This document shows, piece by piece, positions 5,767 to 63,007 of a stretch of 63,007 nucleotides of DNA. The notes under the pieces were generated by a model, which saw nothing but the letters and a program-made list of their open reading frames with translations, did not search any database and was not told the origin of the DNA. The DNA is taken from contig JAGONS010000001.1 in NCBI GenBank assembly GCA_017992915.1, forward strand, positions 1-63,007. Direction: 5' to 3'. The DNA is from Bacteroidales bacterium (GTDB taxonomy: Bacteria; Bacteroidota; Bacteroidia; Bacteroidales; UBA932). The stretch's first letter is position 1. The number at the start of each line of letters is the position of its first letter. The position numbers were made by a program, and so were the translations under genes.

Positions 5767-6294
5767 ATGAAAATTGAAGACAACAAAGTAGTATCTCTGA
5801 TCTACAATCTGAAAGTCAATGGTGAGACCAAAGACTCCTGCGACAAGGAAAATCCGCTTGAATTCATAATGGGTATGGGCTATCTGCTCCCCAAATTTGA
5901 GGAATACCTTCTCGGCAAGGGTGTCGGTGACAAATTTGACTTCGTCCTTTCAGCTGCCGAAGGTTATGGCGAACTCAACCCCCAAGCCATCGTTGACCTT
6001 CCCAAAAACATATTCGAAGTAGATGGTGTACTCCAGGAAGAGCTTCTCGTACCGGGCAATTATATCCCCATGATGAATCAGATGGGTGGAGTAATCCCAG
6101 GTAAAGTTGTGGAAGTGAGTGAGGAAAGCGTAAAAATGGATTTCAACCACGAACTTGCGGGACAATCACTCCATTTCAAAGGCGAAATTACCGCAGTCAG
6201 GGAAGCTACAGATGAGGAGCTTACCAACGGACTTCACGGTGAGAGAGCCATGCATAACTGCGAAGGCAACTGCTCCTCTTGCGGAGGGTGCTAA
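5767..6294 (+). CDS. slyD: FKBP-type peptidyl-prolyl isomerase, SlyD-like, with a Cys-rich C-terminal tail
   Basis: N-terminus MKIEDNKVVSL.Y.L, an IF-domain insert, and FKBP motifs (LEF..G.G.LLP.FE..L.G). The tail is HNCEGNCSSCGGC. The start is taken at the internal ATG 5767. Confidence 0.8.
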   Translation: MKIEDNKVVSLIYNLKVNGETKDSCDKENPLEFIMGMGYLLPKFEEYLLGKGVGDKFDFVLSAAEGYGELNPQAIVDLPKNIFEVDGVLQEELLVPGNYIPMMNQMGGVIPGKVVEVSEESVKMDFNHELAGQSLHFKGEITAVREATDEELTNGLHGERAMHNCEGNCSSCGGC

Positions 6295-10400: not shown

Positions 10401-12010
10401 TCGACATATCAGGAACACTGGATAAACTGGCCCTTAACAGCACTAACGGACATTTTAACGATTTTAATTTCATACTGGACTACACAAAGGTACCATATAT
10501 CGTAAATGGGCCTTTCAGCATGAGCGAAAAAGGGGTGGTGTTTGAGAAAGCGATTGTCACTGACAGATTTGGTCATGAAGGGACCCTTACAGGAGGATTG
10601 CAATATGACCATTTCAAGGACATGCGTCTTAACGCCAGACTGAATGCCGAGCATCTACACGGACTCAATACCACAGCCGCAGATAACGATTCATACTACG
10701 GAAGGGCATTCGCCACCGGTACAGTCCGTTTAAGCGGACCATTCAGAAAACTTTTGCTGGATATGAATATCACCACCGGAAGAAACTCCACCATACATAT
10801 CCCGCTAGGTTCCTCATCAAGCAGCCATACCTCATTGCTTACCTTTGTGGACAACACTACAGTCAAGTCCATCTCAGCCTATGATTCGTTGCAGGTGATG
10901 AACACCGCCGCCGAAAAGAGAGGCGGTTACGAATTTGCCGTCAGAATGCGTGTCAATGCCACTCCTGATGCTGAAGTCCATCTCGAAATCAATAAAGCGC
11001 TGGGCGATGTCCTTAAGACTCGTGGATCCGGACAGTTGGTGATAAATGCCGCCACAGATCTGTTTGACATAAAAGGTAACTATAATATCGATGAAGGCAG
11101 TTACAAGTTCGTGATGCTGGGACTCGCCTCCCGTGACTTCATCATCAATCCGGGCGGCACTATCAATTTCACCGGAGATGTAATGAAATCTGACCTCAAC
11201 CTTGAGGCCATATACCGTACGAAAGCCTCCATAGGTACTCTGATAGCCGATACTACCTCCATCAGCACCAGGCGCACGGTTGACTGCGGCATCGGCATTA
11301 CCGGTAAACTCGCCAATCCCGAACTCAATTTCTCCATTGATATTCCCGATTTGGACCCCACCATCAAAGGACGTGTGGAAAGTGCCCTGAGTACCGAAGA
11401 TAAGCGTCTTAAACAGTTACTTACTCTGCTCCTTTCAGGCAGTTTCGTGCCTGACGAACAGTCAGGCATTGTCAACAACACCACCGTACTTTACTCCAAT
11501 GCCTCCGAGATCATGGCCAACCAGCTCAACAATGTCTTCCGCCAACTCAACATTCCTCTCGACCTTGGATTCAATTACCAACCGGGAGAGAAAGGACGCG
11601 ACATATTTGACGTGGCAGTCTCGACTCAGTTGTTCAACAACCGTGTCAACATAAACGGAAACATAGGTAACAGGCAATATATGACCTCCAATCAGAGTGA
11701 CCTGGTGGGTGATGTCGATGTGGAAATCAAAATCGATCGTACCGGCAGGGTACGCCTCACTCTATTTTCTCATTCGGCAGACCAATACAGTAATTACCTC
11801 GACCAGTTACAGCGCAACGGAATAGGTCTATCTTATCAGGAAGAATTTGATGACTTCAGAGAACTTTTCAGAAAGATATTCTGGAGTAAAAGACGCCGCG
11901 ATGAGTACGCCGCCCAACAGGCAAGAGTTCTTGAAACACGTCGAATGGATCCCCTGCAACGGATGCAGGAACAAAAATCAGAGCAAACGCAAGGAGCCAC
12001 CATCAGGTGA
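7430..12010 (+). CDS. tamB: Translocation and assembly module protein TamB (DUF490-type giant envelope protein)
   Basis: 1526 aa with an N-terminal TM anchor, a long beta-rich body, and a C-terminal DUF490-like region (NPELNFSIDIP, LLLSGSF). The start codon is uncertain; see findings. Confidence 0.8.
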   Translation: MVILLALVPTSLYIAIQMPAFQTFVGNKVSSVLSDKINGDISVGKISYALFNRLIVKNVLVTGFAGDTIVHTNKISVNLHTRSLISGEIKAGKIVIDGGEFNICQITPEESNLALLLKKNETRQGEEPAEAMQEESDKKSEGWPKPVNIDKIEIRDFTFRALDTFDITTYADPRTIDWSNIVLNEINLSARNLHMDEDVTVELDNLSFKEGNGLNINAFSGNIRLGDVLEYNGLDTITRKEIYIDDMLYDDGYSRLVTEYYSMRFDDFSDFSDYVRKVYMGLDLKEESFLDFQSLRSYTDELSYFTLKFYLSGETKGTVSNLITRSLKVQSKTKQTLLDFSAHLSGLPNAGETMASFDIKRCYTTTAEIADIVESVTDTPIDKKAIGSFAKGERIHFDGSLNGFFEDFVAFGELGSEDLGNFKVDIICRNERGAGYELIGFIKSRAFDLGRLMGNSLLGDFTCDATVSAVLGKESSIDIENISISELGFNNYNYSNILASGRLANNEFDGRVICSDPNLNFMFHGVFALAGKSSNSLYKFNLALGHADLHALNFDKREISRLKLLADADFTKTKSGDLYGDILIKNFVCSLGNDNYDVGNINLRSTSYKNDYKLQLKSSFARADYAGTAPISSFISDLLKLTAEHHLSHLFETKEKAEGLPDINENYSFTLQTFDMRPVCSFLMPGLYVEDRTNINVRMTSDDKLKININSPLLAYKHNYIRDLDLTVDNRDSMITTIARSGMLQSGNAKGYDAIIKALVKDNAIGLNLGFDNGKERATYADLNAKVSFPEPKENGLNILADFYPSNIVINGENWSLNPSSIGYREKDISVAGFGLSNGDQTIRFDGRLSANPKDTLLVTLNRFDASVANPIIGIPLDIKGFLTGKAEVFGIFSDNKGILLNIDGEKMSIAGDQIGDLDILTRWNEAAKCFDFLVNNRKNEFTPLHLAGSYFPNKKSVEGNLSLDKFSLVCLNPVVEGVISDVSGSISADIDISGTLDKLALNSTNGHFNDFNFILDYTKVPYIVNGPFSMSEKGVVFEKAIVTDRFGHEGTLTGGLQYDHFKDMRLNARLNAEHLHGLNTTAADNDSYYGRAFATGTVRLSGPFRKLLLDMNITTGRNSTIHIPLGSSSSSHTSLLTFVDNTTVKSISAYDSLQVMNTAAEKRGGYEFAVRMRVNATPDAEVHLEINKALGDVLKTRGSGQLVINAATDLFDIKGNYNIDEGSYKFVMLGLASRDFIINPGGTINFTGDVMKSDLNLEAIYRTKASIGTLIADTTSISTRRTVDCGIGITGKLANPELNFSIDIPDLDPTIKGRVESALSTEDKRLKQLLTLLLSGSFVPDEQSGIVNNTTVLYSNASEIMANQLNNVFRQLNIPLDLGFNYQPGEKGRDIFDVAVSTQLFNNRVNINGNIGNRQYMTSNQSDLVGDVDVEIKIDRTGRVRLTLFSHSADQYSNYLDQLQRNGIGLSYQEEFDDFRELFRKIFWSKRRRDEYAAQQARVLETRRMDPLQRMQEQKSEQTQGATIR

Positions 12011-15007: not shown

Positions 15008-15850
15008 ATGAAAAAACTAATACTGGCCACAGCCCTATTTCTGGCCACATTTACAATGAAAGCGCAGGAACTTATCATCATCAGTTCCGACCTTCTCAAA
15101 TGTGACGATTCCATTCTTGTATTCACCCCGGGACACTCTAGATTCTGCAATAAATCGGATGACAATACCACTGAAGCCATACCCACACTCTTTCTGCTTC
15201 ATGGCTGGTCGGGATGCTACCGCAATTGGGCAGACAAGTCCGACCTTCAGCAGGTCAGCAACCGTTTCGGGTTCAGGATCATCTGTCCGGACGGATTTTA
15301 CAACAGTTGGTATGCAGATAATGTAGACAAAGAGAAAATGCAGTGGAGAAGTTTCTTTGACCAAGAACTCTATCCGCAAATGGTGGAAAAATACAATCTC
15401 GACCCCGAAAAAACATTCATCACAGGCCTTTCTATGGGAGGCCTCGGTGCCATCAACATTTTTCTTGACGACATATCCAGATTCAGAGCTGCCGGTTCGA
15501 TGAGCGGTGTACTGGACATCTATCATGCCTCACCAAATCTGCTTGACAAGGAGCTTAGCCAAATTCTAGGCCCTTATACGCCTGAGAACCCGCTCTACGA
15601 TGCCAATAATCCAATCGGAAACCTCGACAAAGTGGCAGGATCAGGCAAACTGATGGTAATATCCTGCGGATATGAAGATTATTATGTGAAATCTACTCTG
15701 GACTTTTCGGCAAAATGCCGCGAAATGAAGATTCCCCACATTATGCTTCTCTCCCCGGGACGCCACTCCTGGATCTACTGGGACTACGCCCTTGTAGAAC
15801 ATCTGGAGTTTTTCAAGAAAATTCTGGATGGAGCGAATCTGGGATTCTGA
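15008..15850 (+). CDS. Secreted alpha/beta-hydrolase esterase (esterase D / putative esterase family)
   Basis: Signal peptide, LLHGW oxyanion region and nucleophile elbow GLSMGG. Confidence 0.75.
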   Translation: MKKLILATALFLATFTMKAQELIIISSDLLKCDDSILVFTPGHSRFCNKSDDNTTEAIPTLFLLHGWSGCYRNWADKSDLQQVSNRFGFRIICPDGFYNSWYADNVDKEKMQWRSFFDQELYPQMVEKYNLDPEKTFITGLSMGGLGAINIFLDDISRFRAAGSMSGVLDIYHASPNLLDKELSQILGPYTPENPLYDANNPIGNLDKVAGSGKLMVISCGYEDYYVKSTLDFSAKCREMKIPHIMLLSPGRHSWIYWDYALVEHLEFFKKILDGANLGF

Positions 15851-15939
15851 GGTGCGAAATACGAGGTATGTGTTGCGAGGTTGCTAAACTCAGTACTTCC
15901 TCTCAACCCGTAACACATAGCACGCAGCCCGAACCACCC

Positions 15940-16009
15940 CGTAACACGTAACACGTAATACGTAACACTACTCACTCCCCACTACACACTACATACTCGA
16001 AACTCAGAA
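15940..16009 (-). repeat. Ten in-phase degenerate heptamers (TNNNNAG / TNTTACG) starting at the TAG stop of the downstream-facing gene
   Basis: The minus strand reads TAG|TTCTGAG|TTTCGAG|TATGTAG|TGTGTAG|TGGGGAG|TGAGTAG|TGTTACG|TATTACG|TGTTACG|TGTTACG. A further TGTTACG copy lies at 15909-15915. Confidence 0.9.
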
Positions 16010-17269
16010 CTACTTAATAGACATGTCTCTAATCTCCTCTGCATCATAAACACCCTTGTCGAGCTTCACCTTGATCTCGGCGAATGCATTGAGAGTATAC
16101 TCCACATCCTCGAGTGAATGGACTGCAGTGGGAATGATACGATACATTATGATGCCCTGAGGCACCACGGGATATGTAACTGTAGAGCAGAAAATCTTAT
16201 AATTTTTCCTGAGGTCAATCACTATATTTGTGGCCTGCGCCAAATTACCATCCATAAATACAGGTGTAACACATGCCTCGGCAGGTCCAATATCGAAACC
16301 TCTCTTGCGAAGCCCCTCCTGAAGAGCTCTTGTAACAACCCATAGTTTTTCACGCAGACGTGCGCCTTCTTTACCGCGGATGATTTCGAGACGTTTGAGA
16401 GCACCCTCTACGATAGGCATGGGAAGTGCCTTTGCATATATCTGTGAACGCAAATTATATCTGAGGTAATTAATGATGGCTCTGGGACCGGCTACAAATC
16501 CGCCGATGGTAGCCATAGACTTTGCATATGTACCAATATAGAGGTCAATTTCGTCCATAACTCCAAAATGCTCGGAAGTACCACGGCCTTCCTTGCCCAT
16601 AACACCGAAACCGTGTGCATCATCGATGAGAATGCGGAAATTGTACTTCTTTTTAAGATCAACAATATCTTTAAGAATACCGAGAGCGCCGGTCATACCG
16701 TAAACGCCTTCTGTGAGCAGGAGAACTCCTCCCCCTCTGGCCTTTGCCTCAGCGCAAGCTCTTTTAATGATCCTTTCGCAATCGGCAATATCATTGTGAC
16801 GATATTTATATTTGGTGCCGAGATGAAGACGGATTCCATCGAGCAGACACGCATGACATTCGTTGTCATACACTACCACGTCATGGCGACACAGAAGTGC
16901 ATCAATAGTAGATACAATCCCCTGGTAACCGAAGTTGAAAAGGAAACAATCCTCTTTTTTCTCGAAATCGGCAAGCTCCCTTTCGAGTCTTTCGTGGAGA
17001 GCGGTATGTCCGGTAAGCATTCTGGAGCCCATAGGATAAGCCATACCCCATTTTGCGGCTCCTTCTGCATCTGCTTTGCGTATCTCAGGATGATTGGCAA
17101 GACCAAGATAGTTGTTTATACTCCAACATAGGACTTCTTCGCCCTGGAAAAACATCCTGGGACCAATTTCACCCTCAAGTTTGGGAAACATAAAGTAACC
17201 GAAAGCTTTATCACGATATTGGCCCAAAGGACCGCCTGAGTCTTTGCTTAATCTTTCAAAAATGTCCAT
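16010..17269 (-). CDS. PLP-dependent alpha-oxoamine synthase family acyltransferase (SPT/KBL/BioF-like; possibly sphingolipid or sulfonolipid first-step enzyme)
   Basis: Class I/II aminotransferase fold. It has the DDAHG motif and a PLP-lysine context GTYAKS, typical of the AONS/SPT family; 419 aa. Confidence 0.75.
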   Translation of the reverse strand: MDIFERLSKDSGGPLGQYRDKAFGYFMFPKLEGEIGPRMFFQGEEVLCWSINNYLGLANHPEIRKADAEGAAKWGMAYPMGSRMLTGHTALHERLERELADFEKKEDCFLFNFGYQGIVSTIDALLCRHDVVVYDNECHACLLDGIRLHLGTKYKYRHNDIADCERIIKRACAEAKARGGGVLLLTEGVYGMTGALGILKDIVDLKKKYNFRILIDDAHGFGVMGKEGRGTSEHFGVMDEIDLYIGTYAKSMATIGGFVAGPRAIINYLRYNLRSQIYAKALPMPIVEGALKRLEIIRGKEGARLREKLWVVTRALQEGLRKRGFDIGPAEACVTPVFMDGNLAQATNIVIDLRKNYKIFCSTVTYPVVPQGIIMYRIIPTAVHSLEDVEYTLNAFAEIKVKLDKGVYDAEEIRDMSIK

Positions 17270-24902: not shown

Positions 24903-24939
24903 GAGTATGTGTTATACAGTATTTAGTTGTAGTATGGAA

Positions 24940-24993
24940 CTCAGAACTAGCTACTAGATAACTTACTCAGAACTCCATACTTTGGACTCGAAA
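24940..24993 (-). repeat. Degenerate heptamer array starting at a TAG stop codon (same family as 15940-16009 and 62891-63007)
   Basis: The minus strand reads TAG|TTTCGAG|TCCAAAG|TATGGAG|TTCTGAG|...|TAGCTAG|TTCTGAG. It shares the exact units TTTCGAG and TTCTGAG with the 16009 array. Confidence 0.7.
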
Positions 24994-26067
24994 CTAATTC
25001 AATTGTCCCATCATTTCCAAATGGCATTGCAACAGTTCGCCGGTTGACTCGTCGCGTAGGTGCAAACCGTTTCCTTCACAGTATTTATAAGCTTTACAAG
25101 TGGCGCATTTCCCTGTTTTGGTCCAGGAACGGTCACGCATTATCTGATATTTGGTATTCCAGACTGTCCAGAAGTCATCTTTGTAGATATTCCCCTGAAT
25201 GTAATCACCACGCAAGCTGGGACATGCGCTAATATCGCCGTTTGCCAACACCGAACCGATGTGAATGCCGGCCTGACAAAAGAAAGGTGCGTCGCGCACT
25301 TGCATTTCATAATCTGCCAAATAGCCCTCACAGCCATATGAAGCGCGAATTATCCCCTCTTTACGGGTCTGTTTAATGAAGTCCAGCATCTGCACAAACT
25401 CATCTACGGATAGTCTGAGTAGCGGGTTATCTTTTGCTCTTCCTTTAGGGAAAACGGTAAAAAGCCGCCAGTGAGTAACGCCCAGCGAAATAAGCAACTC
25501 CTTGAGCTTATGCAGGTCCAGCAATGATTTTTTATTGACACAAGTAACCACGTCATAAACCAAATCGGGAGTGGAGGCTACTCGCCGTATAGCATCTACT
25601 GCACGCTTCCAGGAGCCTTTTTTGCCGCGGAACCACTCGTGTGACTCTGCCGTATATCCATCCAGACTCACAGTTACAGAGCGTAAGCCTGCACGAAGCA
25701 GTTTATCCAATCTTTCTTGCGAAAGTCCCCATCCGTTGGTTACAAATCCCCAAGGGTATCCCATGTCGTACATGGCTCTTCCACACTCTTCCAAATCATT
25801 TCGCATCAACGGTTCGCCACCGGTAAGCACAATCATGGTCTTATTGGGGTTAACATGCGGACGAATATCCGAGAGCACTTTCAAAAAGTCTTCTTTTGGC
25901 ATATCGGGCGTAACTGATTCTCTTGTGCAATCACTTCCGCAATGGATACAGTTGAAATTGCAACGCAAGGTGCATTCCCAAAAGAAATAGTTGAGTTCGT
26001 GTAGTTTTGCTTGCGTTTTTCTGTGTTCGCGGTATAAGTTCAGTAGGATTTTGGTCCTTAATTTCAT
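24994..26067 (-). CDS. Radical SAM / SPASM-domain protein (rSAM-lipoprotein system type)
   Basis: CNFNCIHC (CxxxCxxC) radical SAM cluster and a GGEPL motif. The C-terminal Cys-rich SPASM-like region reads CQAG...ACPS...GKCATCKAYKYCEGNG. Confidence 0.85.
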   Translation of the reverse strand: MKLRTKILLNLYREHRKTQAKLHELNYFFWECTLRCNFNCIHCGSDCTRESVTPDMPKEDFLKVLSDIRPHVNPNKTMIVLTGGEPLMRNDLEECGRAMYDMGYPWGFVTNGWGLSQERLDKLLRAGLRSVTVSLDGYTAESHEWFRGKKGSWKRAVDAIRRVASTPDLVYDVVTCVNKKSLLDLHKLKELLISLGVTHWRLFTVFPKGRAKDNPLLRLSVDEFVQMLDFIKQTRKEGIIRASYGCEGYLADYEMQVRDAPFFCQAGIHIGSVLANGDISACPSLRGDYIQGNIYKDDFWTVWNTKYQIMRDRSWTKTGKCATCKAYKYCEGNGLHLRDESTGELLQCHLEMMGQLN

Positions 26068-27580: not shown

Positions 27581-28172
27581 GGCCAATATGCCGGTAGCCG
27601 AAAGCGAGCTGGACTACAAGAACCCCTACCAGTTACTGTGTGCAGTGATACTCTCTGCCCAGGCTACCGACAAGCGGGTCAATATGATCACCCCCGAACT
27701 CTTCGAACGCTTCCCCACACCCGAAGATATGGCCGCATCCAATGAGGAGGAGATATATCAGATCATACGCTCCATAACTTACCCTAACAGCAAAGCACGC
27801 CACCTGCTGGGGATGGCACGAATGCTGGTGAGTGACTTCGGATCCGTGGTCCCGGATAATGTAGATGAATTGCAGAAACTTCCCGGTGTAGGACGTAAGA
27901 CAGCCAATGTGATTGCTTCGATCGTCTACAATAAGCCGGTGATAGCTGTAGATACGCATGTATTCCGCACCGCACGCCGCCTTGGACTCTCATCAGGCAA
28001 CAATGTGCTTGAAGTTGAAAAGGATCTGACCGCCGGTTTTCCGGAACACCTTCGCGCAAAAGCGCATCACTGGCTGATACTCCATGGCCGTTATGTCTGC
28101 ACTGCGAGAAAACAAAAGTGCGAATCCTGTGGACTCGCACCTTTCTGTGACCATTTCAACCAGAACAATTGA
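27540..28172 (+). CDS. nth: Endonuclease III (DNA glycosylase/AP lyase)
   Basis: HhH-GPD motif LPGVGRKTANV, catalytic VDTHV, and the C-terminal 4Fe-4S cluster CTARKQKCESCGLAPFC. Confidence 0.9.
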   Translation: MNAKKYQQVIAWFEANMPVAESELDYKNPYQLLCAVILSAQATDKRVNMITPELFERFPTPEDMAASNEEEIYQIIRSITYPNSKARHLLGMARMLVSDFGSVVPDNVDELQKLPGVGRKTANVIASIVYNKPVIAVDTHVFRTARRLGLSSGNNVLEVEKDLTAGFPEHLRAKAHHWLILHGRYVCTARKQKCESCGLAPFCDHFNQNN

Positions 28173-28178
28173 TTCTGA

Positions 28179-28691
28179 TTAAAATCTCTTGGTAATACCT
28201 ATATAAGATCTGTAAGGAATATCAGGTCCGAGAAGTCTAAGGTTGTATTTACCATCCAAAAATAGGCTCCAGCCATTGCTGAAGTTGTACTCAATGCCTG
28301 CACCGAAGTCCATACCGACGTGGAAGTCAACATTCTTACCGAATCCTATGTTCACACCAATGATGGGATAAACATTTAGGCCGTCAATGAGATTGATCAG
28401 GTAGTGAAAACCCACATCGGCACCGAGATGGATGGAGTTATGATCATCTACTCTTTCAAAGAATAGATCGAATCCTGCCCTTCCTCTAAAGTTGTTTGCG
28501 TTAAAGTCACCATGGAGGCCGACTGTAGGACCCCAAAATGCGTAACCTATGTGTGCGCCCACTGCACCGAAAGTGGTGGAGACTTTATAAGTTTTCTGAT
28601 CTGATTCGGTTGCCTGATCCGAGTTGGTCTGGGCTGATAGTGATGAAACACCGATGAGTGCAACCGCCAACACTAGGATTAATTTCTTCAT
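28179..28691 (-). CDS. Small outer-membrane beta-barrel protein (OmpW/porin-family-like)
   Basis: Signal peptide ...SSLSAQ, glycine/aromatic beta-strand pattern and a C-terminal ...GITKRF. Confidence 0.55.
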   Translation of the reverse strand: MKKLILVLAVALIGVSSLSAQTNSDQATESDQKTYKVSTTFGAVGAHIGYAFWGPTVGLHGDFNANNFRGRAGFDLFFERVDDHNSIHLGADVGFHYLINLIDGLNVYPIIGVNIGFGKNVDFHVGMDFGAGIEYNFSNGWSLFLDGKYNLRLLGPDIPYRSYIGITKRF

Positions 28692-32237: not shown

Positions 32238-32789
32238 ATGGTAACAACATTGATTGTGATTGGCATCCTGGCCATTTTGATAATCTGGGTGATTTCCGTA
32301 CAACGGAATCTTATCAGCAAAGAAGAATTGTGCAAAAATGCAATGAGCCAGATAGGTGTCCAAATGTCGAGCCGCTGGGATGCACTTACGGCACTCGCGG
32401 AACTCATCAAATCCTATGACGAACACGAGTACAATTCACTCAAAGATGTAATTGCACAGCGCACAAGCATCACCGGCAGCAGTTCAGCAGCCGATGCCAA
32501 CATGCAGGAAACCATCCTTACAGATGCCATGAGACGTATAGCCGTGGTAGTTGAGCAGTACCCCAACCTCAAAGCCAATGAGATGTACGTCAAGACTATG
32601 GATAGCGTCAATTTGTATGAAAATCAGGTACGTATGAGCCGTATGGTATACAATGACAGCGTAACCAACTACAACCGTCTCATCCGTCAGATTCCCAGCA
32701 ATATCGTAGCTTCATTGTTCGGGTTCAAGTCCAAGGATTATCTCGAAGAAAATCCGGCCAAGACTGAAATGCCCTCAATGAAAAAGTAA
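32238..32789 (+). CDS. lemA: LemA family protein
   Basis: N-terminal TM helix followed by the NxL coiled region typical of LemA (QRNLISKEE.C.NA.SQI.VQ...R.D) and a YPNLKAN motif. Confidence 0.85.
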   Translation: MVTTLIVIGILAILIIWVISVQRNLISKEELCKNAMSQIGVQMSSRWDALTALAELIKSYDEHEYNSLKDVIAQRTSITGSSSAADANMQETILTDAMRRIAVVVEQYPNLKANEMYVKTMDSVNLYENQVRMSRMVYNDSVTNYNRLIRQIPSNIVASLFGFKSKDYLEENPAKTEMPSMKK

Positions 32790-34489
32790 TGAAACGTCTG
32801 TTGCTCACGTTTTTGACCGCGATTGCCGCTTTTACTGCGACAGCGGAAAATACCACCATTCGGAATATTGACATAACATATATTCTTACACCCGAAGGGC
32901 ACGCCAAAGTGACTGAAGTGTGGGATGTCAGTGCAAAAAACATCACCGAGTGGTATTTGGTCAAATATAATATGGACTCTGCCGTCTCAATTACAGACCT
33001 TGCGGTAACTGATGAGAATGGCCTCAACTTTATAAATGAAGGTGAATGGGATATAGACCGAAGCCTCAGCAAAAAGGCAGGTAAATGCGGTATTGTATAC
33101 AAAGGTGTTAATGATTACGAATTGTGCTGGGGTATCGGCTCCTATGGAGATCATATTTTCACCGTTAAGTATACTATCAACAACTTTGTATTGTCAATGG
33201 AGGATTATGATGCGCTTCATTTCCAATTCATCTCCCCGGACCTCTCTTCCGCTCCAGAACACGCGAAAGTGACTGTCAGATATCAGGATGACCTCTACCA
33301 GCTGGATACCTCCAACACTCTGATTTGGGGTTTTGGATATGAAGGCACCTGCGAATTCATAGATGGTACCATTGTAGCTAAATCAGATGCTCCTTTTAAG
33401 AAAAACAGTTCGGTCATAATATTGGCGCGCTTTGAAAAGGAGATGTTCCATAATCTTGTCAACCTAGACAACCGTTTGTTTGAAGAGCGCCATGCGCTGG
33501 CGATGGAGGGCAGCCACTTTGATGGAGAGCCTTCGGAATATTCATACGAAGATTTTGAAGCTAAAGATTCCATTATTCCGATTCTATGGACTCTGGGTAT
33601 CATACTGGCCGGTGTAGGTATAGGCAAACAGAGCAAGAAGTATAAAAATGTCTCCACCTTCGGGGTAAAAAAACTCAAAGATATCGACTGGTGCAGAGAA
33701 ATTCCGTACAATGGAAACTTGCTCGCAACCAATTTTGTTATTACAAAAGCCCCTTCCCTGTTTAAGACACGCAATAGTTATGCTATTGCGTCAGCATATA
33801 TCCTTAGAATGATTCAGAAAAATATTCTGATTACAGGTAAAGACGAGAAGGGGAAAATTACCATCTCTTTCAACGACAAGGCAGATCTCGATAAGCTTGA
33901 ATCTCCCGAAAAGTCACTTTTCAACATGATGAAACAGGCCAGCGGAGCAAACCTGATCCTTGAAGACAAAGAGTTTTCGAGATGGGCCAAAAAAAATAAA
34001 AGTACGCTAATCAGCTGGACAAATTCCATAAGCACCAAGGGTGTCAAAGCTCTGGAAGCGGGAGACTTTTTCTCAAACAACAAGTTCACCCCTTCAGGTG
34101 TTCAGGCCAACAACAAAGTACTGGGATTTTTCAAGTATCTGCAGGATTTTACGCTTATCAATGAAAGAAGATCGGTAGAGGTACATTTGTGGCAGGATTA
34201 TCTGGTGTTTGCCACCCTTTTCGGCATTGCGGACAAGGTAGCTAAAGAGCTCAAGGATATCGACCCTATAGCCTTCGAGAAAGCTGTCAACTACGATTTC
34301 GACACATTCTCTACCATTCTCTACCAAACGAGAATGCTTTCCAATGCAATAACACTGAACTCATATGTGGCATCTTCTTCGGGTGGCTCATTCTCAGGAA
34401 CAAGCTCCTGGAGTGGCGGAGGAGGAGGTTCTTCCTTTGGCGGAGGCGGAGGATTTTCCGGTGGCGGTTCCGGCGGCGGAGGCAGATAA
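32789..34489 (+). CDS. DUF2207-domain membrane protein with a Gly-rich C-terminal tail
   Basis: Signal peptide, an extracytoplasmic domain, a mid-protein TM segment, and the characteristic tail GGGGGSSFGGGGGFSGGGSGGGGR. TAATG overlap with lemA. Confidence 0.8.
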   Translation: MKRLLLTFLTAIAAFTATAENTTIRNIDITYILTPEGHAKVTEVWDVSAKNITEWYLVKYNMDSAVSITDLAVTDENGLNFINEGEWDIDRSLSKKAGKCGIVYKGVNDYELCWGIGSYGDHIFTVKYTINNFVLSMEDYDALHFQFISPDLSSAPEHAKVTVRYQDDLYQLDTSNTLIWGFGYEGTCEFIDGTIVAKSDAPFKKNSSVIILARFEKEMFHNLVNLDNRLFEERHALAMEGSHFDGEPSEYSYEDFEAKDSIIPILWTLGIILAGVGIGKQSKKYKNVSTFGVKKLKDIDWCREIPYNGNLLATNFVITKAPSLFKTRNSYAIASAYILRMIQKNILITGKDEKGKITISFNDKADLDKLESPEKSLFNMMKQASGANLILEDKEFSRWAKKNKSTLISWTNSISTKGVKALEAGDFFSNNKFTPSGVQANNKVLGFFKYLQDFTLINERRSVEVHLWQDYLVFATLFGIADKVAKELKDIDPIAFEKAVNYDFDTFSTILYQTRMLSNAITLNSYVASSSGGSFSGTSSWSGGGGGSSFGGGGGFSGGGSGGGGR

Positions 34490-34545: not shown

Positions 34546-35505
34546 ATGAAGCGCAGAGGTATTTTTTTATTAGCCTTTATTATAATCACAATACAGGTCT
34601 CCGGACAAAACAGAAACTATACACGAGACACCATTCCGCAAAGGGACTCCCTCACCTACTTCGAGGAAGTGCTGGTAATAGATACTCTGGATACGGATGA
34701 CAAATTTACCAAAATCATCCTCTATGATGACTATACCTGGGCATATTTTGATCTGGGCAGACCGGTGATAGATACTGCGGAGTTCTTCGATTCCTGGGAA
34801 GGAACAGGCGTACATTCCTTCAGGGATGTAAAACTCTCGGACATACCCGAAGAAGTGGACCTGTTGCTGGTAGACTCCCTCAACGGATTCTGTGTCCCAT
34901 ATCAACAGAAAGTGGGATCCGGGTTCAAGTTCAGAAGGACAAGGGAACATAAAGGGGTTGACTTATCGCTCAAAACGGGAGACACCATCAGAGCCGCATT
35001 CGACGGTATGGTGCGTCTCTCTGAAGGTACAAGGAGAACCGGAGGTTACGGCAATCTGGTAGTAATTCGCCACCCAAACGGACTTGAAACCTACTACGCT
35101 CACCTATCCAAACGGATAGTGGATAGCGGAGAGGTAGTTAAAGCAGGTGAAGTGATAGGACTGGGAGGAAATACCGGACGCAGCAACGGTCCGCATCTTC
35201 ACTTCGAGACCAGATACAAAGGACATCCTTTTGATCCTCAACGTATCATAGACTTTGAGAAGGGAGTGCTCAGAGACTCGCTTTTTACCCTCAAAAAACA
35301 CTACTTCAGCATCTATTCACATTGGGGACAGACCGACGAGGAGTCGCTAGCTGCTTCACAGCGAATCATCCATACCATCAAATCGGGAGATACTCTCGGT
35401 GCACTCGCCATAAGATATGGCACCACCGTCAGGAGAATCTGTCAACTCAACGGCATAAGTTCCAACAAGATATTAAGAATTGGCCAGCGCCTGATAGTTA
35501 GGTAG
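34546..35505 (+). CDS. M23 family metallopeptidase with a C-terminal LysM domain
   Basis: HKGVDL (HxxxD) and GPHLHFE (HxH) motifs. The LysM region is HTIKSGDTLGALAIRYGTTVRRICQLNGI. Confidence 0.88.
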   Translation: MKRRGIFLLAFIIITIQVSGQNRNYTRDTIPQRDSLTYFEEVLVIDTLDTDDKFTKIILYDDYTWAYFDLGRPVIDTAEFFDSWEGTGVHSFRDVKLSDIPEEVDLLLVDSLNGFCVPYQQKVGSGFKFRRTREHKGVDLSLKTGDTIRAAFDGMVRLSEGTRRTGGYGNLVVIRHPNGLETYYAHLSKRIVDSGEVVKAGEVIGLGGNTGRSNGPHLHFETRYKGHPFDPQRIIDFEKGVLRDSLFTLKKHYFSIYSHWGQTDEESLAASQRIIHTIKSGDTLGALAIRYGTTVRRICQLNGISSNKILRIGQRLIVR

Positions 35506-59499: not shown

Positions 59500-59514
59500 T
59501 TATTGATTGATTTG

Positions 59515-61869
59515 ATGCCATCGATGGTCAGTAAAAGAGTTGTAATAGTGCTGCTGACGGTATTGTGTCTGGTCGCTTCCTCATATGGACGCGGCCGTTA
59601 TATTATTACTATCGGTCGACACACTATTCCCGCTTTTTGCGACACCATTCCTACTGTTCAGGATACCATTCCCGCTTTTCGCGACACTATTCCTACTGTT
59701 CAGTATACCATTCCCGCAATTCAGGATAGTGCCGCACTCTCTTCCGGAGTACCGGTCACCGATACAATCGCGGCCTCGTCTGACACTCTGACCTATCCAT
59801 ACGGCATTATGGAGATAGATACGGTGAATTTCTGGAAATGCATCGATACGCTCACCATCCCCTATCTCGACTCTACCTATACCGCTTACTTTGATTCTCT
59901 CGCACTTTACCTTCCGGATGCAAAAGATATAAAAAGGGCTGAACGAAGAATCGCCAGAGAGTACCGCGACAGCGTAAGGCTGGCCACACCCCGTATTTTG
60001 GACAGCTATATCATTCCCGATTCACTCCACTACCGGCGTATGCTCACCTGGACACACGATCAGGATTTCAACGACATTACTCTCATGGAAATAGATACCT
60101 CGTTCCAGTACAGGTTCAACGACTATCCCTTCCTGCGTAATGACGTCAATGGCACATATCTCGGAACAATTGGCTCTGCAATACAGTATCACAACTTTTT
60201 TAAACGGGAAAAAATGGATGTATTTCCGATGTTCGAACCCTATCTGGGCTACTTTTACACGCCGGAAAACATACCACAATACAACACCAAATCTGCATAT
60301 ACGGAACTTGCATATTGGGGGACACCCTTCGCCACTCAGCAACTGGAGGAGTCCTGTGTCAAAATCCTCACCACCCAGAATATCACGCCTGCACTCAACC
60401 TCTCCTTCCTATACAGACAGTACGGATCGAAAGGTATGCTCAAGGATGAAGCTACCAACAACCGTTCATACGCTATCGGAGTCAATTATCTCGGCAAAAA
60501 ATACCTTCTCAACGCCGGCTTCATCAGCCAAGCGGTAATCCGTTCCGAAAACGGCGGTCTGCAAGACTCATTCTGGATCAGGGACACCATCGTAGATGCC
60601 AAATCCATTGACGTCAATCTTCAGGATGCCGACAATCTGCTCAAACGAAGAACTGCATATCTAAGCCACACCTACACCATACCGATGAATTTCTTCCGTA
60701 AAAAGGATTCACTTTCGGTAGGTGAAGGTACCGTCGCATACATAGGACATAGCGCCGAGTACTCGAGATATGGAAAAGTTTACACTGACAACATCGCTGA
60801 AAACGACATTCACGGTCGTAATTTCTATTTAAACCAATTCCATCTCAACAATATATCCAGCAGAGACTCTCTGGGAACGGAACGGTTTGAAAATAAAGCC
60901 TTCATACGTCTGCAGCCGTTTGCCCACGATGCCGTTTTATCAAAAATCGACGCTGGAGTCGGCTACCAGATGCTCTCCATCCATAGTTTCGAACCCTCGC
61001 ACTATCTGAGCGGAACCAACAATGAGCGTCACAATAATCTCTACCTTTATGCCGGAGTTTCGGGACAATACCGAAAATACCTCTCCTGGAATGCTGATGG
61101 CAAATACACCTTTGCCGGATACAATCTCAATGACCTCGACATTGGAGGAAAAATCAGATTATCATTCTACCCTATAGAGGGTGGTATCCATCTTACAGGT
61201 CGATTGCGCACCACACTGACGGAACCTCACCCTTTTCATCAGAAAATTTATACAAACCACCACAAGTGGCACAATGACTTCACCAAAATCTCCGACAGCA
61301 GGGTCGAGGCTTCTCTCGATATTCCGAAATGGCATACACATGCCGGATTCGACTATGCTCTCGTGAGCGGGCTGATCTATTACGACACTCTCTCGATTAT
61401 AAGACAAGTGAACAAGCCTGTAAGCATCATTTCGGCATCTCTGGAGCAGAACATCCGACTTTGGATACTCCATCTGGACAATCGTGCTCTGTTCCAGATG
61501 GCATCTGATGGAGAGGCGCTCCCTTTGCCGAAACTTTCCCTCAATCTCAAATATTATATAGAATTCAACGTGGTCAAGGATGTGATGAGAATGCAAATAG
61601 GTCTCAACGCCCTCTTCCACACCAAATATTATGTTCAATCGTACAGCCCCGACCTCGGAGTATTCCATAACCAGCAAAAGGAACTCATAGGAGGCACCCC
61701 ATATTTCGATGCATTTGTCAATGTACAGTGGAAAAACGTCACTCTATTTGTCAAGTACACCAACACATTCAAAGGGTGGCCTCAGGCAGATTATTTTTCA
61801 GCCTACAATTACATAAGGCCTGAAAGGGGCTTCAAATTTGGCATCTGGTGGCCATTCTACATCAGATAA
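59515..61869 (+). CDS. Bacteroidetes 'putative porin' family outer-membrane protein with an N-terminal TIP heptad repeat
   Basis: Signal peptide and a large beta-rich body. The C-terminal ...FVKYTNTFKGWP...YNYIRPERGFKFGIWWPFY is typical of the putative-porin family. The start is ATG 59515 or 59524. Confidence 0.6.
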   Translation: MPSMVSKRVVIVLLTVLCLVASSYGRGRYIITIGRHTIPAFCDTIPTVQDTIPAFRDTIPTVQYTIPAIQDSAALSSGVPVTDTIAASSDTLTYPYGIMEIDTVNFWKCIDTLTIPYLDSTYTAYFDSLALYLPDAKDIKRAERRIAREYRDSVRLATPRILDSYIIPDSLHYRRMLTWTHDQDFNDITLMEIDTSFQYRFNDYPFLRNDVNGTYLGTIGSAIQYHNFFKREKMDVFPMFEPYLGYFYTPENIPQYNTKSAYTELAYWGTPFATQQLEESCVKILTTQNITPALNLSFLYRQYGSKGMLKDEATNNRSYAIGVNYLGKKYLLNAGFISQAVIRSENGGLQDSFWIRDTIVDAKSIDVNLQDADNLLKRRTAYLSHTYTIPMNFFRKKDSLSVGEGTVAYIGHSAEYSRYGKVYTDNIAENDIHGRNFYLNQFHLNNISSRDSLGTERFENKAFIRLQPFAHDAVLSKIDAGVGYQMLSIHSFEPSHYLSGTNNERHNNLYLYAGVSGQYRKYLSWNADGKYTFAGYNLNDLDIGGKIRLSFYPIEGGIHLTGRLRTTLTEPHPFHQKIYTNHHKWHNDFTKISDSRVEASLDIPKWHTHAGFDYALVSGLIYYDTLSIIRQVNKPVSIISASLEQNIRLWILHLDNRALFQMASDGEALPLPKLSLNLKYYIEFNVVKDVMRMQIGLNALFHTKYYVQSYSPDLGVFHNQQKELIGGTPYFDAFVNVQWKNVTLFVKYTNTFKGWPQADYFSAYNYIRPERGFKFGIWWPFYIR
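59620..59724 (+). repeat. Five tandem 21-nt coding repeats (HTIPAFC DTIPTVQ DTIPAFR DTIPTVQ YTIPAIQ)
   Basis: Read directly: five consecutive in-frame 21-nt units, with a 42-nt higher-order unit, inside the porin-family gene. Confidence 0.9.
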
Positions 61870-61873
61870 CAGC

Positions 61874-62890
61874 ATGACCAAAAAGGACATTTACTTCTTC
61901 GGGAAATGTTTGCTGGTACTGATAATAGTGATTACTATCAAACTGATGATTCCGGAGAACCGCGGAAAACGCAATACTTATCACATATATCTTAAGGACA
62001 CTCTTGTGTTCAGCATTATACCGGACTGCCAAAGCCGTCAGGGAGGATTCAATCGCGAATTGATTGAGAGATTTGCAGAGTACAATGGCTCTGAATCTCT
62101 CATAGTACCTTCTGTGGGTGGCGAACTGGACTGGAAATACCTTGTTGATGGGAAGTATGACATGCTGGTCTTCAGTATGAACGATTCAATTCCCGACCAA
62201 TATGCTTCAAAGGTGCTTGTAACACGTGAAACCGGCGGCAGGGATGCCTGTGCTGTAAAAGTCGGCAATAAACGGCTGCTCAACAGTTTCAATTTCTGGC
62301 TTTCCGACTTCAAGTCGGACGATACCTATAGGCAGATGGTCTTCAGGTTTTTCAGGTCATACCGTTTGAGTGCAATGCCGGAGGGATTTGACCATAAGAA
62401 TGCCATTTCCCCATACGATTACATTATCAAGAAATATAGCAGCTACATAAATGCAGACTGGAGGCTTATCAGCGCCATTATTTACGAAGAATCGCGTTTC
62501 ATCCACTCTTCGTCATCGGCAAAGAATGCACGTGGTCTGATGCAAATCAAAGAGTCCACCGCAGCCATTTACGGCGTGGAGGATATTCTAGATCCGGAAC
62601 TCAATATAAAAGCGGGAACGCTCCATTTCGACTATCTTTTCAATCTTTACCGAAAAGAAGGATTAGATTCTGCTAATGTGATCAAATTTGCTCTCGCATC
62701 CTACAATGCAGGTACCGGACGCATCAAGCAATGTCGCGAACACGCCGCATCAGTAGGGTTGGACCCAAATAACTGGGAAGAAGTGGTAAAGGGCTTCGAT
62801 TCAATGCCCGATTTCAAAGGAACACAGACGACAAGGTATGTGAGAAATGTCATAGACCTTTTCGAACGCTACAAACAAGTGGTTGAGTAG
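61874..62890 (+). CDS. Membrane-anchored lytic transglycosylase (SLT domain, MltF-like)
   Basis: N-terminal TM anchor and SLT catalytic motifs IIYEESRF, GLMQI and YNAG. The start is taken at MTKKDIYFF. Confidence 0.8.
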   Translation: MTKKDIYFFGKCLLVLIIVITIKLMIPENRGKRNTYHIYLKDTLVFSIIPDCQSRQGGFNRELIERFAEYNGSESLIVPSVGGELDWKYLVDGKYDMLVFSMNDSIPDQYASKVLVTRETGGRDACAVKVGNKRLLNSFNFWLSDFKSDDTYRQMVFRFFRSYRLSAMPEGFDHKNAISPYDYIIKKYSSYINADWRLISAIIYEESRFIHSSSSAKNARGLMQIKESTAAIYGVEDILDPELNIKAGTLHFDYLFNLYRKEGLDSANVIKFALASYNAGTGRIKQCREHAASVGLDPNNWEEVVKGFDSMPDFKGTQTTRYVRNVIDLFERYKQVVE

Positions 62891-63007
62891 TCTGTAGTGG
62901 GGAGTGTGTAGTCTGTAGTGGGGAGTGTGTAGTGGTGAGTGGGTAGTGGGGAGTGGGTAGTGGGGAGTGGGTAGTGGGGAGTGGGTAGTGGGGAGTGGGT
63001 AGTGGGG
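62891..63007 (+). repeat. Tandem heptamer array (TNNNNAG)n: (TCTGTAG TGGGGAG TGTGTAG)x2, TGGTGAG, then (TGGGTAG TGGGGAG)x4.5, running off the window
   Basis: Read directly. It is perfectly phased in 7-nt units from the base after the TAG stop at 62888-62890. Apart from two C bases it is C-free on this strand, with GGG/GGGG tracts every 7 nt. Confidence 0.95.

Follow-up and report, generated by a model that had tools for sequence, protein, structure and literature searches.

A hypervariable heptanucleotide repeat directly behind the stop codon of a lytic transglycosylase gene in a Bacteroidales bacterium

In a 63,007-nt stretch of DNA from an uncultured Bacteroidales bacterium (positions 1 to 63,007 of contig JAGONS010000001.1, assembly GCA_017992915.1; hereafter the window), the gene for a lytic transglycosylase with an SLT domain is followed, directly behind its TAG stop codon, by a tandem array of 7-nt units of the form T-N4-A-G. 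We show here that this array is hypervariable, derived, adjacent to the stop, and based on a multi-unit module, and that it is a member of a widespread, sense-biased class of stop-proximal arrays. The explanation that we favor, and hold tentatively, is that it is a hypervariable heptanucleotide microsatellite, built from the module and expanded by slippage, that would be transcribed as a tail in the 3′-untranslated region (3′ UTR) and may buffer or protect the message.

The array at the end of the SLT gene

The SLT gene lies at 61874..62890 on the + strand (open reading frame (ORF) with translation; Pfam SLT, E=8e-19). Its TAG stop (62888-62890) completes the first repeat unit, TGAGTAG (unit 0, 62884..62890, +), in which the final coding bases and the stop are already in the phase of the array. 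Behind it lie the heterogeneous proximal units TCTGTAG TGGGGAG TGTGTAG TCTGTAG TGGGGAG TGTGTAG TGGTGAG (62891..62939, +), a duplicated copy of a module conserved in Bacteroidales, and then a homogeneous distal block, (TGGGTAG TGGGGAG)n (62940..63007, +), which is the copy-number-variable, quadruplex-capable part and is truncated by the end of the window. Over the whole of 62884-63007 the phase of the (T-N4-A-G)n array is perfect, and the final base of the window falls inside it. The units, their order, their 7-nt phase, and the in-phase gene end are exactly those described in the original prediction, which was made from the sequence alone.

When analyzed by Tandem Repeats Finder, the array has a period of 14, with 8.0 copies, 90% matches, and a score of 175. 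Across the 63 kb, lag-7 autocorrelation gives a signal solely at 15919-16019 and 62883-63007, and the same scan found no region at any other lag from 4 to 12. The pattern (TNNNNAG)x4, with at most one mismatch, has 23 matches in the window compared with 0.20 expected from shuffles, and all of these but one fall within three sites, namely the end of the SLT gene (site 1) and the ends of two other genes (sites 2 and 3). The sense strand of the full array and its flanks contains 92 G and 4 C in 171 nt, and TAG or TGA occurs in each of the three sense frames of the array (5, 5, and 2 stops), as had been predicted both for the near absence of C and for stop triplets rotating through all frames; no antisense frame of the array contains a TAG or TGA stop. 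The SLT array consists of head-to-tail units in the 5-11-nt range and is longer than expected by chance, as in heptanucleotide long simple-sequence repeats, and its copy number is polymorphic in unit-size steps. No Rfam match was found at the gathering threshold in the window or at E<=1 in contig L001 (10900-11300), and a tRNA search of the window gave no match for the array, and we rejected a known RNA family or a tRNA as its identity.

Canonical quadruplex motifs (G3+N1-7) occur in the window solely in the SLT array, which has 15 G-runs of at least three and 10 overlapping motif starts. When sense RNA is folded without a quadruplex term, the minimum free energy (MFE) is -20.1 kcal/mol and the centroid is ~0 kcal/mol, so there is barely any Watson-Crick structure; with the quadruplex term (ViennaRNA) the value is -35.1 kcal/mol, with two predicted three-layer quadruplexes. 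Antisense RNA of the array has an MFE of 0.0 kcal/mol. Sites 2 and 3 contain no quadruplex motif, and site 3 also has no G-runs. Because canonical motifs are found at site 1 alone, the quadruplex is a property of the SLT array and not of the family, and we rejected it as the common denominator of the family; the proposed G-quadruplex potential therefore stands for the SLT array and falls as a family trait. There are no inverted repeats at site 1 (0 in L001 11000-11190), and neither strand of the spacer has a stable hairpin, which rules out an intrinsic terminator (GC-rich hairpin plus U-tract) there. A simple terminator scan of 12-30 kb returned 22 candidates compared with 15.6 in shuffles and placed nothing at the arrays.

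Length variation and array-free relatives

At least 24 public contigs encode a protein identical to the SLT protein of the window. The array is spanned, with both flanks present, by three independent assemblies (ENA, JGI, and NCBI) that are identical here, having 19 units (133 nt) followed by a 23-nt spacer, TTTTGTGGGGTGGGGGGTGCGAA, and then the stop of a convergent gene for an FtsX/MacB-type permease. A fourth assembly has 13 units, that is, three copies fewer of the TGGGTAG TGGGGAG 14-mer (5 copies in L001-L003, 2 in L004), and the window, together with contigs L005 and L006, breaks inside the distal 14-mer block. In a related species whose SLT protein is 83% identical, TGTGTAG is followed by 3, 4, or 5 copies of TATGTAG across samples that encode an identical SLT protein. 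From the agreement of the spanning assemblies, the 13-unit allele, and the position of the breaks, we conclude that the array is real, bounded, and length-polymorphic.

These results bear on two of the checks that the original prediction had called for, on contig ends and on copy number between strains, and they bear out one of the roles that it had listed, a hypermutable simple-sequence tract: copy number differs both between samples (19 compared with 13 units, and the 3, 4, or 5 TATGTAG copies) and between related species (4-19 units). The ends of the window and of two other contigs within the array would fit an assembly or contig-end artifact, but that explanation is rejected and has next to no probability given the identical, flanked arrays of three independent assemblies, the shorter allele, the orthologous arrays in several species, and arrays of the same unit type inside 1.4- and 2.6-Mb contigs of other taxa (L159 and L179). 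The exact left-flank pattern had no match in the metagenome_contigs collection, which evidently does not include samples carrying this organism. Several contigs besides the window break inside such arrays. In practice, short-read assemblies are broken by these arrays, which mark the ends of contigs in genome bins of Bacteroidales.

Relatives with SLT proteins that are 95.5%, 94.4%, and 90.2% identical (Bacteroidales genome bins UBA3543, CTOTU18329, and binned_ad_7.188) carry arrays in the same position. These arrays have 4 to 9 units, of which the proximal ones are conserved and the distal ones divergent, and in the closest relative, L193, the whole site-1 array is TCTGTAG TGGGGAG TGTGTAG TGGGTAG. 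In contrast, two species whose SLT proteins are 88% and 86% identical have no array; their SLT and FtsX genes overlap by 4 nt (...GAC TAA TTCAC...), and no period-7 array was found in their 21-kb syntenic loci. In another species at 88% identity, the junction is just a 14-nt spacer, TTCCGGGGTGCGAG, between TAG and TTA. This spacer is the homologue of the distal spacer beyond the array of the window, and because the two match, the array occupies precisely the position between the stop codon and this older spacer. The SLT C terminus, ...YKQVVE*, is kept in the array-free relatives (...YKQVVD*). Because the protein C termini are unchanged, the arrays appear to have been added behind the native stop and not inserted into genes.

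As judged from these sequence comparisons, the array is a derived filling of a junction that is nearly without length in sister species. The junction thus offers a clean series, from a 4-nt gene overlap through a 14-nt spacer to 4 to 19 units, in which growth took place exactly between the stop and the old spacer. No target-site duplication was evident when filled and empty SLT junctions were compared. An origin purely from duplication of the last bases of the SLT gene itself, AGTGGTGGAC, which resemble the units, was considered and is weakened by the presence of a common module at unrelated loci. To the right of the site-1 array in two close relatives, L193 and L199, there is a co-directional 242-aa ORF, a different gene that takes the place of the FtsX gene found in L001, so a synteny break coincides with the array in these relatives.

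The 28-nt module and related arrays

The module TGTGTAG TGGGGAG TGTGTAG TGG(G/A)TAG (28 nt, four units) occurs with 0-1 mismatch at many non-orthologous loci in rumen and gut Bacteroidales genome bins. The site-1 array of L193 is the module with one mismatch, and the array of the window can be read as the module in duplicate, followed by an expanded block of TGGGTAG TGGGGAG. In rumen and gut bins the module is also found in a dispersed ~80-nt element that consists of the module, a conserved ~16-nt loop (CACACGGGGTCAAGYG or its complement), and four CTAYCCA units (for example, among L127-L223, at L157 3355-3435, L128 6263-6334, and L223 1254-1346). This element is often preceded by a short GC-rich hairpin, often occupies the entire spacer between convergent genes, and looks like a doublet of repetitive extragenic palindromes (REP; a doublet is termed REPIN) or a miniature inverted-repeat transposable element. 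In L157 the inverted pair forms a long hairpin when folded (-56.3 kcal/mol, z = -4.9). An inverted partner, where there is one, lies 3′ of the array in 64 of 64 arrays and never 5′, and every module is preceded by NAG. The 28-nt module had no match in viral contigs. The presence of the same module at unrelated loci and in other genera points to a copying mechanism or strong convergent selection; for uncultured Bacteroidales, its sharing among unrelated loci argues for a copying mechanism or a sequence-specific reader.

A scan with the pattern T..GTAG TGGGGAG TG.GTAG, using one genome per species, returned 97 stretches. Many of these are in uncultured Bacteroidales from rumen, gut, and digesters, and there are further matches in Chitinophagales and Sphingobacteriales, as well as in Acidobacteriota, Gemmatimonadota, Planctomycetota, cyanobacteria, Desulfobacteraceae, and some Proteobacteria. 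One Bryobacteraceae genome bin (Acidobacteriota) has about ten loci (L130, L133, L135, L136, L151, L153, L158, L175, and L187), and one Vicinamibacterales genome bin has loci L148, L190, L191, and L203. Single Acidobacteriota genomes contain many TGGGTAG/TGGGGAG arrays that abut stops and are also found as inverted pairs in convergent arrangement, so distant phyla have these two heptamers in common.

The position and orientation of the arrays relative to genes were analyzed in 163 arrays of at least four units from the scan loci, using ORFs of at least 100 aa. A same-strand ORF ends within 10 nt of the array 5′ end in 51 of the 163 arrays, and the mirror arrangement, an opposite-strand ORF ending that close to the array 3′ end, is present in 2, which upholds the predicted enrichment and orientation behind stop codons. 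In a test that is free of any motif, period-7 arrays that abut exactly one gene end in Bacteroidales loci have 6% C and 36% G on the sense strand, with more G than C in 22 of 23 arrays (p = 5e-7), including arrays of AGGTGAA and AGTTGAA units. The depletion of C on the sense strand is thus a strand bias more general than any single unit. Of the heptamer arrays in Bacteroidales loci, 44% contain AGT compared with 21% expected. This makes T-N4-AG a frequent subclass, and we rejected the idea that it is a rule for all heptamer arrays of Bacteroidales. The (TNNNNAG)x6 scan of viral contigs says nothing on AGT, since any homogeneous heptamer containing AGT matches this pattern, and counts of arrays inside an ORF were not used because they are unreliable with mechanically called ORFs.

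The gene next to a stop-flush array is co-directional in 20 cases and convergent in 19, so no preference for convergent gene pairs is seen. In the window, the convergent pairs at 6291-6294, 11978-12010, 35473-35505, and 28172-28179 overlap or are ~6 nt apart, and the only appreciably long spacers between convergent genes (15851-16009 and the SLT/FtsX junction) are largely heptamer arrays. In 28 Bacteroidales loci of 8 kb (for example, L139 4928-4991, L167 2008-2088, and L172 7148-7262), there is approximately one period-7 array per 5 kb; the units are varied (GTTAACG, TTTCTAA, AGGTGAA, CGATTAA, and others), and some rumen Bacteroidales genomes are exceptionally rich in repeats of this period.

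The window has 45 mechanically called gene ends, and at least two consecutive T-N4-AG units follow on the sense strand at 3 of them, sites 1 to 3 alone. Each of the three genes has TAG as its stop codon, in phase with its array, in a window where stop usage is TAA 17, TGA 15, and TAG 13. Site 2 has seven units, TAAGTAG TTCTGAG TTTCGAG TATGTAG TGTGTAG TGGGGAG TGAGTAG (15968..16016, −), which start in the TAG stop of a pyridoxal phosphate (PLP) aminotransferase gene (16010..17269, −; Pfam Aminotran_1_2). Distal to these are TGTTACG TATTACG TGTTACG TGTTACG (15940..15967, −; Tandem Repeats Finder period 7, 4.1 copies), which are of an older NGTTNCG type, and weak sense-strand heptamers, TTCTGAG GTGCGAA ATACGAG ... 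(15845..15885, +), are found behind the convergent esterase gene as an inverted copy of units at the other gene end. Site 3 has four units, TTTCGAG TCCAAAG TATGGAG TTCTGAG (24966..24993, −), right after the TAG stop of a radical-SAM/SPASM gene (24994..26067, −; Pfam), and is not G-rich. TTCTGAG and TTTCGAG are common to sites 2 and 3, and TGTGTAG TGGGGAG TG.GTAG is common to sites 1 and 2.

Sites 2 and 3 have a partial inverted-repeat character that site 1 lacks. At site 2, 15845-15857 pairs with 15997-16009 (85% complementary) and 15851-15877 with 15909-15935 (70%), with a fold of -38.6 kcal/mol (z = -3.2); at site 3 there is a partial inverted arm at 24931-24945. The original prediction had placed the same repeat family at two other gene ends. 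Both are real relatives, but their units lie on the minus strand, after the TAG stops of minus-strand genes, and within the third site as first drawn (24940-24993) only the four units at 24966-24993 fit, the remainder being the inverted arm. The broader claim, that this is a family of 3′-end elements, is supported by the 3 of 45 gene ends, by same-position arrays in related species, and by the bias in position and orientation in the genome scan.

Orthologous site-2 arrays are present in L141, L186, and L164. In a sister species (91% identity; L234 4261-4290), the whole spacer between the aminotransferase and esterase genes is 30 nt with a perfect 10-bp hairpin (AGTTGCGAGT ... ACTCGCAACT), which is built of two NGTTNCG heptamer proto-units (AGTTGCG AGTTACG). 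In the window, the newer T-N4-AG units of site 2 are placed between the stop and the older NGTTNCG units, and the hairpin spacer of L234 is possibly the ancestral state of this site. The window contains two further tandem repeats of other kinds: a 21/42-nt repeat (59621-59728, score 163) in the N-terminal part of a Porin_10-family gene (59503..61869), which encodes DTIPAF/DTIPTVQ motifs, and a 12/24-nt GGN-rich repeat (34413-34479) near the 3′ end of an ORF at 32789..34489.

Possible roles, rival explanations, and precedents

In the explanation that we favor, the module is the core of the array, which has since grown in 7- and 14-nt steps, probably by replication slippage. The array would be transcribed together with the SLT mRNA as its 3′ UTR, and the message would gain a nearly C-free tail with little Watson-Crick structure and with (U/G)AG triplets at 7-nt intervals. 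A tail of this kind could act as a multivalent platform for single-strand RNA-binding proteins, the SLT array RNA is predicted to be able to fold into G-quadruplexes in addition, and the likely effect would be to buffer or protect the 3′ end of the mRNA. Because every reading frame contains stops that come from the units, no slippage event can make the protein longer, and these in-unit stops would explain why the sense orientation alone is tolerated flush with a stop. As a side effect, the array keeps two convergent operons 156 nt apart, and on the opposing FtsX transcript it would appear as a C-rich, G-poor RNA for which no structure is predicted, a composition like that of Rho loading sites.

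Several points weigh against this explanation. Sister species lack the array, only 3 of 45 gene ends in the window have one, and the genes are functionally unrelated, so any function is dispensable and the element is modulatory at most. Every RNA-level step in it is inferred from sequence, and the present analysis identified no trans-acting factor. Slippage alone does not explain the module at unrelated loci and in other genera. The scan sample was chosen by a pattern that contains TAG, and its ORFs were mechanically called; the offsets of -7, -14, and -21 between arrays and ORF ends are partly forced by in-unit TAGs, although the 51:2 asymmetry itself is not forced. Finally, a regulatory role was not found for the analogous repeats of Xanthomonas and Nostoc (Rehm et al. 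2015, PMC4692102).

The last of these findings also fits a possible, if somewhat doubtful, alternative in which the array is a neutral by-product, a slippage-prone repeat that has no cellular role, accumulates at gene 3′ ends where it does least harm, and owes its sense bias merely to the harmless stops in its units. Copy-number polymorphism and rapid turnover, absence from sister species, and occurrence at a minority of genes unrelated to each other are as expected for such a repeat, and among the long simple-sequence repeats of bacteria heptanucleotides form the commonest class, which is attributed to slippage of the polymerase (Mrazek 2007, cited in PMC4679880 and PMC4692102). A neutral origin leaves unexplained, however, the 28-nt module with 0-1 mismatch at non-orthologous loci of different Bacteroidales, the extreme C depletion of the sense strand also in units that are not T-N4-AG, and the 51:2 asymmetry with placement flush with the stop rather than elsewhere in the spacer. 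In a REP/REPIN-like explanation, which we consider unlikely, the module would be one arm of a small mobile or copied element that inserts in fixed orientation 3′ of a stop-like NAG, the full element in rumen bins would be two inverted heptamer arms around the ~16-nt loop, and the array of the window would be a one-armed copy expanded by slippage. The near-identical module, loop, and second arm at many rumen and gut Bacteroidales loci, the 3′ position of the inverted partner in all 64 arrays having one, the L157 hairpin, and the presence or absence of arrays between sister species all fit. REP elements bear a 5′ GTAG that is recognized by REP-associated tyrosine transposases (RAYTs), and here NAG precedes every module and GTAG is present in most units. 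Site 1 itself has neither an inverted arm nor a hairpin, though, and its filled and empty forms show no evident target-site duplication; the module had no match in viral contigs; no transposase or RAYT gene was seen, though none was searched for; and a strict 7-nt periodicity and cross-phylum TGGGTAG/TGGGGAG arrays are not REP features.

The composition of the opposite strand suggests a polar Rho-dependent terminator, in which antisense RNA from the convergent FtsX operon would load Rho and halt transcription before the SLT gene. Rho loading sites are C-rich, G-poor, and unstructured, and the antisense strand, the complement of the G-rich and nearly C-free array, agrees with a Rho utilization site in composition only (~80 nt or more C-rich, G-poor, and unstructured). 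Its MFE of 0.0 kcal/mol, the C-rich antisense composition across the family, and the lack of a hairpin-plus-U-tract terminator for either convergent gene in the site-1 spacer speak for this model. Nevertheless, we regard it as improbable: stop-flush arrays precede co-directional genes as often as convergent ones (20 and 19), site 3 has no convergent gene, termination would fall within the SLT gene and not ahead of it, and the model has no need of the strongest statistic, the abutment of the sense strand to the stop. A fail-safe against readthrough or frameshifting is suggested by the TAG and TGA triplets in all three sense frames and by the stop of the gene being itself a unit end. It is very unlikely, as one to three units would be enough and 19 are present, some units have no stop triplet of their own (TGGGGAG in the window and TGGTCAG in the viral-contig sample), and ribosomes on random sequence likewise meet a stop within a few tens of codons.

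Repeats of this kind have precedents, and the earlier statement that no such element had been described was too strong. The literature that we searched contains no paper on these units or this family in Bacteroidales, but Rehm et al. 2015 (PMC4692102) described intergenic, G-rich heptamer repeats of 2-26 units in Xanthomonas (GGGAATC) and Nostoc (GGGGA(C/T)T) that are stop-proximal, on the coding strand, mostly transcribed, and without an established function; they also form inverted pairs, and at a given gene pair close relatives differ in both the number and the sequence of the units. Like these, the SLT array has period 7 and a G-tract per unit, is quadruplex-capable, intergenic, and length-variable, and has inverted pairs in its family. 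By the in-silico quadruplex motif of that class (a G3+ tract in each of four or more units), the SLT array qualifies and sites 2 and 3 do not, and location within 50 bp of a stop or overlapping it, with a G-rich coding strand, applies here since the first unit contains the stop. The consensus GGGNATC or GGGGAYT is absent, the units being TGGGTAG, TGGGGAG, and TGTGTAG. Further differences are the phylum, the T-N4-AG unit with (U/G)AG on the G-rich strand, members without any G-tract (site 3), and the 28-nt multi-unit module at unrelated loci.

Other heptanucleotide repeats share fewer features. According to Mrazek 2007, as cited in PMC4679880 and PMC4692102, heptanucleotides are the dominant class of long simple-sequence repeats, for which slippage was hypothesized. 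These repeats and the short tandemly repeated repetitive (STRR) heptamers of cyanobacteria (Calothrix/Nostoc), as cited there, are likewise tandem repeats with a 7-nt unit, which particular lineages have in excess in their intergenic DNA; unlike the arrays described here, they are presented in those citations with neither a stop-codon anchoring rule nor a module. MacGregor 2015 (PMC4679880) reported TAACTGA intergenic direct repeats in Beggiatoaceae, Cyanobacteria, and five Bacteroidetes, in which contigs break and indels come in 7-nt steps, and noted other heptamer repeats in Bacteroidetes intergenic regions. The reverse-complement unit, TTATCAG, fits T-N4-AG, but unlike the SLT array the TAACTGA repeats are A/T-rich, lie mostly just upstream of start codons ("forward"), and have a proposed role in translation initiation. 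With REP/REPIN sequences and their RAYTs, as generally described, the arrays share dispersal as short intergenic repeats at gene 3′ ends, presence or absence between relatives, and a recurring GTAG. The inverted-doublet hairpins of REPINs, again as generally described, have a likeness in the rumen relatives and not in the array of the window, and the palindrome next to GTAG is absent at site 1, where GTAG is present in most units of a strictly 7-periodic array. The cyanobacterial STRR1 (CCCCAGT) and STRR3 (CAACAGT) units would also read T-N4-AG in one frame.

At the RNA level, HutP reads NAG triplets at 7-nt spacing (U498/U505/U512) in single-stranded RNA (PMC2425495). The SLT array resembles HutP/TRAP-type sites in having A-G at regular spacing in RNA with weak Watson-Crick structure, with (U/G)AG every 7 nt as for HutP. 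It differs in placement, since those sites are antiterminators or attenuators of 3+3 or 11 triplets in 5′ leaders of Firmicutes that overlap a terminator, and the SLT array is 3′ of the stop with no overlapping terminator; no HutP or TRAP homologue is known for this organism, and none was searched for. The Bacteroides RRM-1 protein RbpB binds 3x GUAGGAUA and not a C/U-rich motif (bioRxiv 10.1101/2021.04.27.441718). Taken together, assignment to REP sequences, intrinsic terminators, HutP-type sites, or Rfam families fails in each case on at least one tested defining feature, and the array belongs to the heptanucleotide simple-sequence-repeat class. What is new is the phylum and the unit; this kind of element has already been reported and is not a categorically new system.

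It is a rather remote prospect that the arrays form an undescribed 3′-UTR system, in which multivalent (U/G)AG-N4 platforms right after stops would recruit an abundant protein that binds single-stranded RNA, at a dose tuned by slippage, the module would be spread by dedicated copying, and the same logic would perhaps extend to the heptamer arrays found close to stops in Cyanobacteria, Xanthomonas, Acidobacteriota, and Planctomycetota. By analogy, candidate readers in such a system could be RRM-1 family proteins standing in for Hfq in Bacteroidota or a HutP-like, ring-shaped reader of NAG. Stop-flush, coding-strand heptanucleotide repeats have been noted in several phyla since 2007-2015 without an established function or generating mechanism, and the interest of the present array lies mainly in the series of filled and empty junctions, the generality of the strand rule, and the conservation of the module. 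Should there be a protein that reads these arrays or an enzyme that mobilizes them, they would represent a 3′-UTR element that is both widespread and tunable, in a phylum in which post-transcriptional control is poorly known.

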